Assembly: GCA_017450465.1 (NCBI GenBank)
Contig: JAFSUW010000003.1
Span: 4,481-68,480 of the forward strand
DNA length: 64,000 bases
Source of the DNA: Clostridia bacterium
Lineage (GTDB): Bacteria; Bacillota; Clostridia; TANB77; RGIG9151
Reading direction: 5' to 3'
In this document: one piece after another, positions 5,326-51,767 of the stretch
Position numbering within the stretch: the stretch's first letter is position 1
Layout of the letters: each line of letters opens with the position of its first letter
Made by a program: the position numbers and the translations under genes
Notes under the pieces: model-generated
The model's input: the letters and a program-made list of their open reading frames with translations, nothing else
What the model was told of the DNA's origin: nothing
Database searches by the model: none

Positions 5326-5344
5326 TTTTTTTGTTGTCAGAAGG

Positions 5345-5433
5345 GACGGGGGCAATTGACCACAATTATGTAGAGTGGTCAATTGCCCCCGTCCCTTCTG
5401 ACAAGCCCGTCCCTGTTGACCACTTTTATAAAT
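5345..5433. repeat. GC-rich palindromic intergenic repeat element, copy 1 (28-bp perfect inverted arms plus partial third arm)
   Basis: TGTCAGAAGGGACGGGGGCAATTGACCAC / GTGGTCAATTGCCCCCGTCCCTTCTGACA separated by a 12-nt loop, then AGCCCGTCCCTGTTGACCAC. Second copy at 51674-51767. Confidence 0.7.
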
Positions 5434-6325
5434 AAAAATCATGATTTCCGATTGTTTTATAAAACGTTCTATTTTCTATTATCCATTTGCTTTTTGCTAT
5501 TTTTGGGTTTAAGAAGTATAAACATTCTCCCACAATATTTTTACCAGTAAGTGCTGCTATTGCGGCTTTTTTACTTTCATCGCTCGGTGCGTTATATATT
5601 GTACCGTTTTCGGTTGGTTCAAATTGCACCCCATAGTTTGTGTCAAATATTACTCCCCAGATTGTGTTTGGGTAGTTTTCTGATTTTACTCGATTTAATA
5701 TTACATTTCCTACTGCAACTTTTCCTTCATAACTTTCGCCTTTGGCTTCGGCTTCAATTATTCGTGCAAGCCATAAAACTTCATCATCTGTATAATTTTT
5801 TGGTTTGGAAATAGTAGTAGAAGTAGTTGTTGGCTTACTATTGCTTTTTCGAGTAGGGGTAGAAGTGGTTTTATATGATGTGGAGGAGCTTTTTAAGGAA
5901 GCTTTTTTAGTGGTTATTGTTATGGTGTAAGTATCGCTATTAAATTGCGTTTCACTACCAAATAAATCGGATATAGTTCTTAGTGGAACAAATGTTCGCA
6001 AATTAAATATAAGTGGAGTTTTATTAAGCGAAGTATATACATTATTTACATATGCATAGTTCTTATTAATGAACAAAAGAATTCTTGTTGCATCTTTTTC
6101 AATTATTATAGATTTACTGTTTTCGTTCCAAGTTATTTTATCTACTTTTAAGGCATTACTAATAAAACGTAAGGGAACATAGGTAGTGCCGTTTAGTATA
6201 AATGGTTCTACGTCTCCTGAAACGACTTTGCCATCTACGACTATTTTTAAGTTGTTTGCAAACGTAGTAGAGATATTTAATAAAAAAATAAGTATAAAAA
6301 TAAATAAGAGTTTTTTCTTTTTCAT
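5426..6325 (-). CDS. secreted cell-wall hydrolase: copper-amine-oxidase-N-like stalk domain plus SleB-type (Hydrolase_2) C-terminal domain
   Basis: Signal peptide MKKKKLLFIFILIFLL. Ser/Thr-rich linker. C-terminal LWLARIIEAEAKGESYEGKVAVGNVILNRV resembles the SleB/CwlJ family core. GGAG RBS present. Confidence 0.6.
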   Translation of the reverse strand: MKKKKLLFIFILIFLLNISTTFANNLKIVVDGKVVSGDVEPFILNGTTYVPLRFISNALKVDKITWNENSKSIIIEKDATRILLFINKNYAYVNNVYTSLNKTPLIFNLRTFVPLRTISDLFGSETQFNSDTYTITITTKKASLKSSSTSYKTTSTPTRKSNSKPTTTSTTISKPKNYTDDEVLWLARIIEAEAKGESYEGKVAVGNVILNRVKSENYPNTIWGVIFDTNYGVQFEPTENGTIYNAPSDESKKAAIAALTGKNIVGECLYFLNPKIAKSKWIIENRTFYKTIGNHDFYL

Positions 6326-6423
6326 GTTATCAACTCCTTATATGTTCAACTTAAGGGTAACAAAAAAGGAAAATCTACTCAATGCAAAATTTATGGTAGC
6401 AGTGGAAAAAAAGGACAAAAAAA

Positions 6424-6456: not shown

Positions 6457-7227
6457 TTAATGTTTTGTTTTAATGAGCCAGAAGGGAATCTCGAGGGTTC
6501 TGAGTTCTTGCGGAGTGAAGTTTTGAATCGGGATAACCTCTTGGTAATGGCGGTCATCGACGCGGTCTTCGTAGTAGACATGGACCGATTTGTACGACGC
6601 GAGATAAACGAATTCAAACTTTTTCGTATGGTCCTCGGTCTCGAACTTGAATGCGAGGTCTTTGTAGAGAGACATGAGAATCGAATCGACTACACGCCAT
6701 TTGTGGAGTTCCTGATTCATGATTCTTTCCATCTCATTGGTGTCTTCTTCGGTTGCGTTGTAGAAGAACTTTTTTTCGTTCTCTCTTTTGACACCGCAGA
6801 GGAAAAGGTTTACGTCGCCGGTTCTTCCGAGGTAACGGATGAAGCTTTCCGGAACGTTCCTTTTTTTGAAGATGGGGAGCATCTTGGCAGGATGGAAGCG
6901 GTAGGTGTCGTACAGCTCCTCAATAATTTCTATAATCTTGAAAAGCTTGAAGTTGTGCTTCCAGATGATAGGATGATCTTCATACTTTAATCCCACTTCG
7001 ATGTGTCCATCATCTTCAAAGGAGATTGCGATGAGTTCATATAAAACTGTCTTGGGTTTCCTTTTTTTGTTTACGATGTGCTTTCGAGTTTCTTCTTCGA
7101 TAGGGGCGAATGCCCAGCCGATTTCTACCTCCTTGCCTTCGAGCTTTTTTGATGCGATGAGCTTTGCGAGCAAGATGTTTTTGATGATCTTGCTTTGAGT
7201 GTTCAGGTAGTACGCAACAGGCTGCAT
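6457..7227 (-). CDS. hypothetical 256-aa protein, atypical GC (about 45-50%, C-ending codons ATC/CTC/TTC/GAC), monocistronic cassette
   Basis: Long ORF with strong GAGGAGG RBS, own promoter and terminator. No family recognised from the translation. Confidence 0.55.
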   Translation of the reverse strand: MQPVAYYLNTQSKIIKNILLAKLIASKKLEGKEVEIGWAFAPIEEETRKHIVNKKRKPKTVLYELIAISFEDDGHIEVGLKYEDHPIIWKHNFKLFKIIEIIEELYDTYRFHPAKMLPIFKKRNVPESFIRYLGRTGDVNLFLCGVKRENEKKFFYNATEEDTNEMERIMNQELHKWRVVDSILMSLYKDLAFKFETEDHTKKFEFVYLASYKSVHVYYEDRVDDRHYQEVIPIQNFTPQELRTLEIPFWLIKTKH

Positions 7228-12190: not shown

Positions 12191-13579
12191 ATGAAGAAAA
12201 TACATTTTATTGATGTAACATTAGTATTTTTAATAGTTTTATCATTAGTTTTAACAGGAAGCTTATGGTTTGATAATTACCATGGGCTTTCTTTGGCTAT
12301 ATCAGAATTACCATTTTGGTTAAATGAAACTTTTGATTTTGGTGAAACTGAGTATACTGAACTTATAAAGCCATATAAAGTAACTTTAACTAATGGCGAT
12401 AATGGAAATTACATATATTATGCGTTTAGTGAAGGTAATGTTGAGGGCTTTAATACCGTTTTTTCAATACTAAATAATTTAACCAATTTGGCTATTGATG
12501 AAGCATTTCCTAGTGAATGGAATGAATTACTAACTAGGAAAAGTATTATATGCGAATTTGGTGGGGCGATTGATGCTAATTTACTTACATCGGTAATGTC
12601 AAATAGCACCATTCCTACTGATGTAGTTCAAAACATATCTGCAATAGCAGTAACCAAGGCATTAAATGGTGTAACGATATATATAAAGTGTGATGAAACT
12701 AAAATTTATAGAATGTCATTTGAAGGGGATATTACTCCATTTACTAATTACTTAAACGATTATTCTAAAAAAACAATATATGCAAAATATGTAAAACTTT
12801 CAGAAATGGGTACTACAACGTTCTATGGCAACAAAAAAGTATCCGAAAATTCGTATGTACTATTTCCAATGTCAGCAAAGCAGAGCAATAGAAGGTACGT
12901 TTCAGAAATAGTTTCTAAAAAGTTTTTTGATAATTACGATATGGATACACTTGAAAAGCTTGTTTCATCGTTTTTTTCAACAAATGAATATACCAAATTT
13001 ACAACAACGGATAATAGTTATATCTTCATAAAAGATGATGGCAGTACCGTAAAAGTGCTAAATAGTGGTATTTTTGAATATAATACTAAACTAGTTTACG
13101 ATGATACTATAGATAGCACGATAATGTCGTCTTTTAATGTTGCTCTTGACTATATAAATAAGTTTGGAGAAACTAGTGTGTATCTACTTTCAGGGCAAAA
13201 AGTAGATAATGCGTATGAATATAAATTTGGGATAAATAAAGATGATATCCCTGTCGTAAATAATTCACAGCCAATTGATGAAGATAGAAGAATATACATA
13301 CATATAAAAGTCTTAAACGATAAAGTAATCTACTGTAAACAAAGCTTAAATCGTTATGAAACCGTAAAAACATTGTCATATATAAGTAGTTTCGGGACAA
13401 ATATTTTGGATAACATTTTGGCTAACATTGAAAAAGATTCAGTAGTTACAGTAGAGAACTTAGATTTAGTATATGATGTATCAAGCAATAATAAATATCC
13501 ATTTTGGTATGCAAAATATAAAGTTTTAGATGATGAAAATTACATATTTACTTCTGCTGCAAAGAAAAAAATATATTAA
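12191..13579 (+). CDS. YycH-like membrane-anchored extracellular protein (possible two-component regulatory accessory)
   Basis: N-terminal TM anchor then about 430-aa extracytoplasmic domain. Size and topology match YycH; no alignment done. Confidence 0.35.
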   Translation: MKKIHFIDVTLVFLIVLSLVLTGSLWFDNYHGLSLAISELPFWLNETFDFGETEYTELIKPYKVTLTNGDNGNYIYYAFSEGNVEGFNTVFSILNNLTNLAIDEAFPSEWNELLTRKSIICEFGGAIDANLLTSVMSNSTIPTDVVQNISAIAVTKALNGVTIYIKCDETKIYRMSFEGDITPFTNYLNDYSKKTIYAKYVKLSEMGTTTFYGNKKVSENSYVLFPMSAKQSNRRYVSEIVSKKFFDNYDMDTLEKLVSSFFSTNEYTKFTTTDNSYIFIKDDGSTVKVLNSGIFEYNTKLVYDDTIDSTIMSSFNVALDYINKFGETSVYLLSGQKVDNAYEYKFGINKDDIPVVNNSQPIDEDRRIYIHIKVLNDKVIYCKQSLNRYETVKTLSYISSFGTNILDNILANIEKDSVVTVENLDLVYDVSSNNKYPFWYAKYKVLDDENYIFTSAAKKKIY

Positions 13580-13581
13580 AG

Positions 13582-14103
13582 GTGATGAGGTTTTTGGACT
13601 TAAAACGTGTAAAACTAATGCTTATATTTCTGTTTTTAATAATTAATATTTTTTTGATGTACATGCTTTATAAAGAAAACATCAAATCATATGCAGATAC
13701 AATAACAGCAATAAAAAATGTACTTGCTGTAAATAACGTAGAAGTTATACCAAACCTAAATATTATAGATAGAAGTATAAAAATGCAAAAACTAAATATT
13801 GTCGATAATACAGGCATTACAGAAGATTTATTAATAACCGAAGTAGAAGTAGAAGGGTATGAACTTATAGGAAAAAAGCGAAAAATAGTATCGGTTGCGA
13901 CACTTCTTGCTAATTTCATAAGAGACAATGCACCACATGATATAACAATAAAAGCGATTTCACGTGGTTATTTTTATGATAGTACGAAAGTATCCGAGAA
14001 CTTACTTACAGCTGAGGCAGAACCATGTTGGATAATTGAAACAAATGAAAAAACGTATTATTACAATGCGTATGGTGGAGAGTTAATAAAAATAGAAGAA
14101 TAA
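13582..14103 (+). CDS. YycI-like small membrane-anchored protein
   Basis: N-terminal TM (LMLIFLFLIINIFLMYMLY). Translationally coupled to the upstream gene with a 2-nt gap. Confidence 0.3.
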   Translation: MMRFLDLKRVKLMLIFLFLIINIFLMYMLYKENIKSYADTITAIKNVLAVNNVEVIPNLNIIDRSIKMQKLNIVDNTGITEDLLITEVEVEGYELIGKKRKIVSVATLLANFIRDNAPHDITIKAISRGYFYDSTKVSENLLTAEAEPCWIIETNEKTYYYNAYGGELIKIEE

Positions 14104-14150
14104 GAATATAAAAAACCAGTAACGTTTATACAAATGTTGCTGGTTTTACT

Positions 14151-14178
14151 TTACATAATTAATTCATTATGGTATAAT
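14151..14178 (+). promoter_or_regulatory. promoter TTACAT, 16-nt spacer, TGgTATAAT for the GC-rich cassette
   Basis: Extended -10 read from sequence, about 125 nt upstream of ATG 14305. Confidence 0.45.
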
Positions 14179-14304
14179 ATATATATGTTAAATTCTATAC
14201 TGACAAGAAAGGAGAAAGTTCTTCTTTTGGACGTTTAACCCGCTATGCACTGTGCTGAGTGCGTACGCAACCAGGACGTTTAAAAAAGAAGAACAAATCT
14301 AACC

Positions 14305-15075
14305 ATGACTGAAACTTACGTAATTCTCGCGGCGATGTGCATCATCGCAATTTTCGCGATTATCGCCCTCTGCGTTGGTAAGGCGAAAAAGACCACGACC
14401 ACGACGAAGAACGACCACATCTGCGTTGATGACACCGGTATGTACGGAGGACTCCGCGAGTACCACGAGCGGAACCGCACTACCGACGTCGATGAAGATG
14501 AGATCTACGAGACCGACGAAGAAGACTACGACGAACCCGATGAGCCGGAAAAGCCGAACCTTGATGCCTATATGAAGGCGGAAGAGGAAGCAGCCGAAAC
14601 CGGCGTTGAAGTCGAGAACGGAATCGAAGCCGAATCGGGCATCAAGGCGCAGAACATTGCGTACGCAGAGCCCGAAATGGTTGCTGAACCCGAAGCCGAG
14701 AACGAACCCGAGGTAATCGAACCGGAACCGGAGCCCGTAAGGGCGGTCGTGCCGGTAAGAAAGCCGACGGAACAGGAGTTTGCGAAACAGAGGCCGCGTG
14801 AAAAGACCGCCTGGGACAAGGCGAAGGCGTGGCTTTGGGCTGCGCTCATCGTACTCGCAATTGCGGTCATCTTGGCCCTCGCAGCCACGGCTTACGAGAC
14901 CCTGACGGGTCAGCCCATCGGCGTCAAGTTCTGGACCGTCGCACTCGCAATCATCGCCACCATCTTCATGGCCGTCTGCGCTATCAAATATCGGCGCGAC
15001 AAAGACGCCTGGGTATGGTGGACCATCGCAATCGTATGTGCGGTCGTTGCCGCATACGCGTGGTTCAAACTTTAA
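14305..15075 (+). CDS. hypothetical polytopic membrane protein with acidic Pro/Glu-rich linker, strongly atypical GC (about 55-60%)
   Basis: N-terminal TM, EPEAENEPEVIEPEPEP low-complexity linker, three C-terminal TM helices. GC3-rich codons. No obvious SD. Several long overlapping ORFs in other frames are GC artefacts. Confidence 0.55.
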   Translation: MTETYVILAAMCIIAIFAIIALCVGKAKKTTTTTKNDHICVDDTGMYGGLREYHERNRTTDVDEDEIYETDEEDYDEPDEPEKPNLDAYMKAEEEAAETGVEVENGIEAESGIKAQNIAYAEPEMVAEPEAENEPEVIEPEPEPVRAVVPVRKPTEQEFAKQRPREKTAWDKAKAWLWAALIVLAIAVILALAATAYETLTGQPIGVKFWTVALAIIATIFMAVCAIKYRRDKDAWVWWTIAIVCAVVAAYAWFKL

Positions 15076-15090
15076 CCCCCCTATCAGATA

Positions 15091-15121
15091 CCCCGTACAG
15101 CACTACGGGGTTTTGTTTTTT
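15091..15121 (+). terminator. intrinsic terminator CCCCGTA-cagcac-TACGGGG plus T-run
   Basis: 7-bp GC stem followed by TTTTGTTTTTT. Confidence 0.65.
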
Positions 15122-15146: not shown

Positions 15147-15178
15147 GATTTTGATTATGACCTGTCATAATCAAAATC
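15147..15178. promoter_or_regulatory. perfect 32-bp palindrome GATTTTGATTATGAC-CT-GTCATAATCAAAATC (candidate operator)
   Basis: The 15-nt arms are exact reverse complements. Confidence 0.4.
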
Positions 15179-15474
15179 TACATTTAGTAATTCTACATAA
15201 TTTACAGTTTAATAACAAAAAACAAATAAAGCGAATTCATCACGTAGTTTGTTAGCATTTTTCCAAAACAGCTTATGGTCGTCAAAAAAGCCGGATGCTT
15301 TTTTGAGTGAGTATGCGACATGGATGTCGTCATACGAGCGACCACCATTTGTTTTGGCAAAAAATGCAACAAATGAAGTGTTAGAATGAAGCGATTTGTT
15401 TTTTGTTATTTGTAAATTTCTTATACTTGCCAAACTTTATAAATAATAGTATCATTTACATTGAGGTGAAATAC

Positions 15475-51594: not shown

Positions 51595-51673
51595 TAGTAT
51601 CCCCCTTTTCTTTATACATTAATAATACCTTTTTAAAATAAAATTTGCCACACAAAAAATAAAAAAATTTTAG

Positions 51674-51767
51674 TTGTCAGCGGGGACAGCTTGTCAGAAG
51701 GGACGGGGGCAACTGACCACTTTGCTTTACATAAATGTGGTCATTTGCCCCCGTCCCTATTGACAGA
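51674..51767. repeat. GC-rich palindromic intergenic repeat element, copy 2 (inverted orientation relative to copy 1)
   Basis: TTGTCAGAAGGGACGGGGGCAACTGACCAC / GTGGTCATTTGCCCCCGTCCCTATTGACAG arms with partial extra arm GTTGTCAGCGGGGACAGC on the opposite side from copy 1. Confidence 0.7.

Follow-up and report, generated by a model that had tools for sequence, protein, structure and literature searches.

Why should low-GC bacterial DNA carry one short, sharply bounded gene of high guanine-plus-cytosine (GC) content? The question is raised by a 64,000-nt stretch from an uncultured Clostridia bacterium (GenBank assembly GCA_017450465.1, contig JAFSUW010000003.1, positions 4,481 to 68,480), here called the window. 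At ~14205–15115 of the window lies a cassette that encodes a 256-amino-acid (aa) membrane protein, with 55–61% GC against ~31% for the surrounding DNA. To a first, sequence-only reading it looked like a gene that had come from a high-GC donor and been set behind a host promoter. Our analysis leads us to lean, with modest confidence, towards another explanation: a lineage-specific autonomous unit with an end-kissing mRNA built for post-transcriptional control, whose GC content is maintained and not imported. Coordinates below are those of the window and its plus strand unless stated otherwise; L-numbers are labels of related contigs.

The compositional break is real. Sliding 200-nt segments gave GC fractions of 0.46–0.61 from 14200 to 15100, versus 0.31 for the whole window and a background outside the island of 0.310 on average (standard deviation, sd, 0.044; maximum 0.47). 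The island is the sole stretch in the 64 kb to exceed 47% GC, and its description as the sharpest compositional break is accurate. It had also been called strongly GC-skewed. The GC richness stands (55–61% versus 31%), but 'skew' is a misnomer: (G–C)/(G+C) is ~0 inside the island, so G and C are balanced and the island is GC-rich, not GC-skewed. The rise is not limited to codons: leader and terminator, both non-coding, share it, and the promoter does not. In the open reading frame (ORF; 57% GC), GC at third codon positions (GC3) is 0.69–0.70, versus 0.20–0.22 in neighbouring genes. The proposed codon-usage check showed codon choice to be almost a mirror image of the host's (CTC, 58% versus 1%; ATC, 77% versus 5%). 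Junctions between flank and island are identical across six independent assemblies, and the island is thus neither a chimeric contig nor an assembly artefact. It forms a single transcription unit, comprising a near-consensus promoter, a leader of ~120 nt, the 256-aa ORF and a terminator.

We ran the RNA structure prediction that had been suggested for the leader. It folds into an unbranched rod (14218–14294) with a minimum free energy of –34.5 kcal/mol (z –3.75); the L001 rod gave –36.2 kcal/mol (z –4.26). In stem P1 (14218–14228 with 14285–14294), a pyrimidine arm pairs with a purine arm that adjoins the ATG. P2 (14229–14236 with 14274–14282) follows, and P3 (14242–14251 with 14258–14268) forms the tip, closed by the apical loop GUGCUG (14252–14257). 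The motif GGACGTTTAA does occur exactly twice in the window (14229–14238 and 14274–14283; 0.08 expected), as had been noticed, but not as a direct repeat. The two copies are the two strands of P2, ACGU being self-complementary and G and U able to wobble-pair. The GCACT/AGTGC hairpin reported between them is genuine and corresponds to P3.

Covariation supports this fold. RNAalifold found compensatory changes in 12 of 24 pairs among seven leaders. In a nine-sequence model alignment, 88.9% of cells were paired, versus 44–62% for slid controls, with double changes in 14/24 pairs. Internal loops vary in sequence and length, P2 (GGACGUU/AGACGU) is conserved in sequence beyond the needs of pairing, and the apical loop is conserved in 7/9 leaders, variants being GUGCCG in L001 and AUGCUG in L090. 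A covariance model, R1, had matches confined to these leaders within 129 kb. Rfam returned no match at E ≤ 10 for the leader in the window and none at E ≤ 0.01 in eight relatives. The leader is very probably a conserved RNA structure that acts after transcription. As a predicted structure, supported by covariation and absent from Rfam, it is new. The 52 matches of a leader pattern in JGI metagenomes, all in contigs of 45–73% GC, are chance or irrelevant, most lying inside one conserved coding region and none having the leader stems. The 17 matches of a looser pattern in GTDB genomes, all in high-GC taxa, reflect chance in high-GC coding DNA, and viral contigs gave no matches in three scans.

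How might the rod bear on initiation? No GG-containing Shine–Dalgarno (SD) motif lies within 20 nt of the ATG, in agreement with the earlier remark that the real start has no SD. In most relatives, the only SD-like motif at 5–10 nt from the AUG is within the purine arm of P1; formation of P1 thus closes the ribosome-binding site there. A second SD-like sequence, GAAAGGAG ('SD1', 14207–14214), lies at the 5′ foot of the rod, 91 nt 5′ of the ATG, and all leaders have a GAAAGGA-type motif of this sort. Its AAGGAG (14209–14214) is the only good SD in the window leader and, counted through the closed stem, lies 3 + 10 nt from the AUG. In 8/8 leaders GAAAGGAG can pair with the pyrimidine tract that follows it. 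Hence that tract has two mutually exclusive partners, the P1 purine arm and the upstream GAAAGGAG. No conserved start codon follows GAAAGGAG in the leaders. The mini-ORF TTG-GAC-GTT-TAA, which had prompted talk of leader-peptide or attenuation-type control, is found in only 3/8 leaders, and the leader has no hairpin followed by a U run; a conserved leader peptide was rejected.

A new finding is a match between the two ends of the unit. The intrinsic terminator (15090–15121) has an 8-bp stem (ACCCCGUA/UACGGGGU) that covaries in relatives, a T run and the loop CAGCAC (15098–15103). We compared the four full-length members available (the window, L064, L066 and L001). In 4/4, the leader loop is the exact reverse complement of the terminator loop: GUGCUG and CAGCAC in the window, in L064 and in L066, and GUGCCG and CGGCAC in L001. 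The L001 loops differ by a compensatory double change (UA→CG) at matching positions. Counting all three helices, 18/18 pairs and 72/72 cells are standard pairs. Both stems covary, and the loops stay fixed while stems and surroundings change. Two units without the leader loop (L064 8458–8839 and L087) are also without the terminator loop, and across six units the loop pair is jointly present or jointly absent.

Other properties are compatible with an interaction. The complement is unique per transcript in 3/4 members. CAGCAC occurs nine times in the 64 kb and once in the window transcript, and it forms the loop in none of the window's 15 other terminator-like hairpins. When the whole transcript (936 nt) is folded, both loops stay unpaired, and a 6-bp helix between them has a calculated energy of –7.8 to –9.3 kcal/mol. 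An inverted-repeat or transposon-end reading was rejected: the match is confined to the 6-nt loops, and the stems bear no relation to each other. These data suggest a 5′–3′ kissing contact between the leader and its own terminator. A text search, not exhaustive, found no bacterial terminator loop kissing a leader loop.

Could the leader be real and the complementarity coincidental? Each loop might have its own partner, a protein or a trans-acting RNA, and the leader alone might control translation, whether as a thermometer, as a site bound by a protein or as a simple hairpin that occludes the SD. This explanation draws on there being a single covarying event among four sequences, and the excess conservation of P2 hints at protein recognition. 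Yet an exact 6-mer complement in the cognate terminator loop has a chance of ~1 in 4096, both loops are fixed amid changing stems, the L001 change falls at matching positions, and the loops come and go together across the six units. We regard coincidence as doubtful, while giving it real weight.

Relatives were reached via the neighbouring 173-aa gene. Every contig that covers the slot has a gene of the same architecture (transmembrane (TM) helix, disordered linker, three TM helices) between the 173-aa gene and recD2, behind the same promoter. The syntenic comparison, which had been proposed as a check, thus found the slot filled in all relatives. The gene is complete in L066 (173 aa) and L064 (167 aa) and partial in L088, L090, L085 and L092. 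Most, not all, of these slot genes share the leader. Full-length products of relatives have 167–245 aa, and short variants of 52–98 aa also exist. GC3 is 0.40–0.48 in the relatives' slot genes and 0.66 in L001, versus 0.13–0.23 in the host, and 0.27–0.30 in three shorter variants without the conserved leader loop (L064 8543–8839, L087 and L062). Sorted by leader type, GC3 is 0.40–0.70 with the kissing leader and 0.27–0.30 without it. Relatives that keep the leader loop therefore do not carry this gene at host-typical GC; they are raised above it. One of the short variants belongs to a second, paralogous unit at the same locus (L064 8458–8839). Its promoter is of the same type, and its leader (R1 score, 28.8 bits) keeps the outer stems but differs in the apical hairpin; it encodes a protein of 98 aa with three TM helices (GC3 0.30), and its terminator lacks the CAGCAC loop.

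Between the window and L001, flanking genes are near saturation at four-fold degenerate sites (p = 0.566; F81 distance, 1.68), with a GC content (GC4) of 0.14. In the cassette, p is 0.56, GC4 is 0.73, and changes between strong and weak bases are balanced. Neutral decay in the flank regime, even from an ancestral GC4 of 1.0, predicts ~0.35. Four-fold sites that are saturated yet at a GC4 of 0.73 indicate that the cassette's composition is at its own equilibrium. Selection or a persistent bias on the transcript may hold the transcribed segment GC-rich, from leader through ORF to terminator but not in the promoter.

Folding of the coding sequence (CDS) bears on which of these applies. Compared with dicodon-shuffled recodings, which keep the protein, third-base usage and dinucleotide content, the native CDS gains 24 kcal/mol in folding stability (z –3.70; 0/60 shuffles at least as stable). 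The same calculation gave z-scores of –2.14 for L001, 0.04 for L066 and –0.99 for a control gene. Under an alternative with no selection at the RNA level, a recombination hot spot would have made the island through GC-biased gene conversion, or some other mutational bias of a heavily transcribed unit would have done so. A recombination breakpoint at the cassette edge, the inclusion of non-coding leader and terminator in the GC rise, and the lack of conserved CDS pairings all accord with such a bias. A purely mutational bias does not, however, predict excess folding over dicodon shuffles, and a rise in GC3 from 0.2 to 0.7 over 900 bp with sharp edges is far larger than biased conversion is known to achieve in bacteria. 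We consider this alternative unlikely.

Recent horizontal import from a high-GC donor, with the gene set behind a host promoter and not yet ameliorated, is the reading that composition invites. The break amounts to seven times the background sd, codon usage is near-inverse to that of the host, a promoter and a terminator of its own make the unit resemble a phage moron, and it does move between lineages. The divergence of L060 from the window falls from 21.2% to 1.9% at the stop codon and terminator of the upstream gene (p = 1e-10), and L060 and L061 both combine an allele 98% identical to the window's with a flank that is 21% diverged. The upstream terminator (14115–14152) marks the left edge of the exchanged segment. 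By these alignments, the unit is exchanged between related lineages within the clade. A source outside the clade is another matter. Searches of 5.8 billion clustered proteins found no homologue outside it, an HMMER profile search of 1.84 billion representatives recovered clade members only, and phage and plasmid collections held no homologue. Homology searching of the kind that had been advised therefore yielded no relative beyond this uncultured Clostridia clade. Sample names point to ruminant-gut metagenomes for these low-GC organisms.

Other marks of import are missing as well. The motif TTTAACCC, at 14234 and 15071, had been offered as a hint of an insertion duplication; it occurs three times in the window versus 3.4 expected and is not conserved in relatives, and we reject it as a target-site duplication. 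No integrase or tRNA gene adjoins the cassette. Like morons and genomic islets, the cassette is an independent promoter–ORF–terminator unit of deviant composition between two genes; unlike them, it occupies one slot clade-wide, its composition is at equilibrium, and no source genome was found. Positional homologues with the same promoter, leader and terminator fill the slot in all relatives at intermediate GC, and synonymous sites saturated relative to L001 are nonetheless stationary at 73% GC. Import from a high-GC donor is largely refuted, and we now hold it very improbable; the cassette is probably a conserved clade-specific gene and not a recent foreign arrival.

The product of the ORF (14305–15075) is predicted to have a TM helix, an acidic disordered linker and three further TM helices, in accord with the architecture proposed from the sequence. 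An AlphaFold2 model, of low confidence (mean pLDDT, 58.7), places helices at residues 2–27, 169–201, 207–228 and 233–255, with the remainder disordered and the acidic linker between the first and second. The diverged homologue in L001 (P0002) is 56% identical, with mismatches at the three codon positions of 0.30, 0.27 and 0.57. The ratio of nonsynonymous to synonymous change (dN/dS) versus L001 is 0.19 in the ORF frame only; the two other frames carry stops and have dN > dS. No family in Pfam, NCBIfam, PADLOC or PHROGs scored above threshold, and sub-threshold matches were set aside as products of TM segments or low complexity. Together these data point to a putative fast-evolving, four-TM membrane protein encoded by a lineage-specific autonomous unit. 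The allele in L060 (278–622) and L061 (191–535), equivalent to window 14305–14650, comes from two different samples and carries a nonsense mutation, AAG→TAG at codon 114 (K114; codon 115 in the allele), plus a 3-nt insertion; it is either a natural knockout or the source of a truncated product.

How might such a unit work? It would be strongly transcribed, and formation of the rod would close the start region. Once the terminator had been made, its loop would kiss the leader loop, in the manner of TAR-TAR*, tying the 5′ and 3′ ends together and locking the leader rod. Tied ends would be protected from RNase J1, RNase Y and 3′ exonucleases, and kissing may also keep the rod shut or place the stop codon near the start. 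The GC-rich, over-folded body would remove the single-stranded A/U-rich targets that an untranslated message otherwise exposes. The outcome would be a compact, nuclease-resistant message, poorly translated or translated only under some condition. The boldest form of this reading, possible more than probable, is a bacterial 'closed-loop' mRNA, in which a terminator loop would kiss the loop of a rod leader and GC content and folding would be selected transcript-wide, giving a long-lived message that is silent or conditionally translated.

Parts of this scheme have precedents. In TAR-TAR* and in ColE1 RNA I/RNA II, hairpins with fully complementary loops of 6–7 nt form a stable loop–loop helix. 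Those hairpins are on separate or artificial molecules, whereas here both are on one mRNA, ~850 nt apart. Phage T4 genes 38 and 25 have split ribosome-binding sites bridged by a hairpin of ~20 nt. In the window, likewise, a hairpin separates AAGGAG, at its 5′ foot, from AUG, at its 3′ foot, and bridging is putative; the intervening hairpin is longer (77 nt, versus ~20 nt in T4), and the spacing through the stem is 11–13 nt. A third precedent is the hbs mRNA of Bacillus subtilis, a strongly expressed monocistronic message whose structured 5′ untranslated region (UTR) forms, with the 3′ UTR of the same message and beside the terminator, a 14-nt duplex that limits attack by RNases Y and J1 (PMC5737220). 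As in hbs, complementarity of the 5′ UTR to the 3′ UTR within one transcript is kept in evolution (4/4 here), the pairing in our case being predicted from sequence. The hbs duplex is linear, mostly A/U and just 5′ of the terminator, whereas the candidate contact here is a G/C-rich, 6-nt loop–loop helix that uses the terminator's own loop; hbs also has a very strong SD, and here the start region is closed. STAB-SD of Bacillus thuringiensis cry3A is an SD-like sequence that, in a stable mRNA, lies near the 5′ end and far 5′ of the start codon (PMC4113751). The GAAAGGAG(G)-type sequence at 14207–14214 is likewise 91 nt from the ATG and not placed to start translation, and its stabilizing role, by 30S binding that would guard the mRNA against RNase J1, is putative; unlike STAB-SD, it adjoins a pyrimidine tract able to sequester it.

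Intramolecular 5′–3′ pairing that makes mRNA translationally inert is described for hok, for aapA1/aapA3 (PMC6733600, PMC5416894) and for icaR of Staphylococcus aureus (PMC3868564), and in hok and aapA successive transient hairpins form around the SD during transcription (PMC6733600). Our unit shares with hok and aapA a membrane-protein product, alternative pairings near an SD and complementary mRNA ends. This raises the idea of a module like a type I toxin–antitoxin system, in which a membrane-toxin mRNA is inert through 5′–3′ pairing until processed. The occluded start, the 52–98-aa variants in relatives and the nonsense allele in the wild would all fit. The product is nevertheless a protein of 167–256 aa with four TM helices and a long linker (256 aa in the window), and type I toxins are usually under 60 aa. 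The 3′ partner here pairs with the apical loop and not with the SD, and a 3′ anti-SD, an antisense antitoxin and 3′ trimming, as in hok, aapA and icaR, were none of them found. No conserved antisense promoter or antitoxin RNA was detected; judged from sequence alone, the unit contains no minus-strand promoter, and promoter-like sites downstream are unconserved in relatives. A toxin-like module is accordingly hard to credit.

The least probable alternative is that the leader senses a ligand, as a riboswitch of some undescribed class. A conserved, structured leader before a membrane protein, with conserved nucleotides in P2 and the loop, would suit one, but Rfam gave no match even when E was allowed up to 10, the rod is simple and unbranched with variable internal loops, and it is confined to one locus in one clade, where pattern scans of other sequences found chance matches only.

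We return to the reading we lean towards, a lineage-specific unit with an end-kissing mRNA and maintained GC. Several observations weigh against it. With four full-length members, three of which have the same loops, the loop–loop helix rests on one compensatory event plus conservation, and L001 has a second CGGCAC inside its CDS. In the window, the purine arm that adjoins the ATG has decayed to AAGAAGAA, a poor SD, and relatives thus show SD sequestration more clearly than the window itself does. L066 and L064 have no excess folding. No specific CDS structure is conserved, predicted pairs not being shared between the window and L001; any selection would thus be for general foldedness, or the z-scores have another cause. 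The nonsense allele in two samples implies that the full-length protein is not always needed. Finally, exchange of the cassette between lineages weakens the strictly vertical descent assumed in the decay calculation.

The remaining features concern the promoter and the flanks. The promoter (14150–14178) has TTTACA, a 17-nt spacer and a TG-extended TATAAT, matching 11/12 consensus positions plus the TG; an AT-rich, host-type promoter does precede a self-contained unit, as the sequence-only reading held. TATAAT and a tandem TTTAC-TTTACATAA (14145–14158) are kept in all relatives. The upstream copy of the tandem acts as the –35 element where the distance to TATAAT is 12 nt; in the window and L001, with a spacer 5 nt longer, the downstream copy takes that role. 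The slot follows genes for 462-aa and 173-aa membrane-anchored proteins and precedes recD2. These two neighbours (12191–13579 and 13582–14103) are clade-specific, have an N-terminal TM helix and are conserved along with the cassette slot. Their label as yycH-like (and, by implication, yycI-like) was not borne out, neither having a Pfam or NCBIfam match. A scan of GTDB genomes with the 462-aa neighbour gave no match, and the clade is seemingly absent from that collection. The 173-aa gene ends in the terminator hairpin at 14115–14152 (12-bp stem plus T run). In L001, this gene has an in-frame TGA (875–877) where the window reads CTT, which could be a pseudogene, a sequencing error or recoding.

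Downstream, a perfect 15-bp inverted repeat, GATTTTGATTATGAC-CT-GTCATAATCAAAATC, lies at 15147–15178, just past the cassette terminator. A TwoAYGGAY RNA (RF01731; 48.5 bits versus a gathering score of 43) occupies 15240–15381 on the plus strand, between that terminator and recD2; the equivalent place in relatives has no Rfam match. Four independent assemblies (L003, L004, L005 and L007) end at 15239–15246, the 5′ edge of this RNA, which suggests a repeat or a strain-variable junction. Hairpins of the type GUAGUGCCGAUG...CAUCGGC adjoin the cassette repeatedly in relatives (L064 6895–6920; L066 5985–6010 and 6095–6120; L088 812–835; L085 2181–2205) and are not recognized by Rfam. Elsewhere in the window, a 256-aa ORF without family assignment on the minus strand (6457–7227) lies in the second most GC-rich stretch (up to 46.5%); it encodes a non-membrane protein unrelated to the cassette. 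A weak R1 match near it (6300–6384; E 0.04) is probably spurious. A repeat of ~70–95 nt, 80–87% identical, has inverted copies at 5334–5404 and 51672–51765.

R1 is a new covariance model, and the leader that it describes is missing from Rfam. Compositional islands are routinely taken as horizontal transfer. The present case, in which a native transcript specific to its clade seems to maintain such a composition, is a warning about that practice. Should the loop contact be real, intrinsic terminators can hold regulatory information in their loops, and kissing hairpins could join the two ends of a bacterial mRNA; this mechanism has so far been known chiefly from antisense control in plasmids and from RNA viruses. 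With a closed-loop mRNA, bacteria would have a kind of cis-regulatory architecture that has not been described for them, and GC content would be a selected property of one transcript and not a trace of ancestry.

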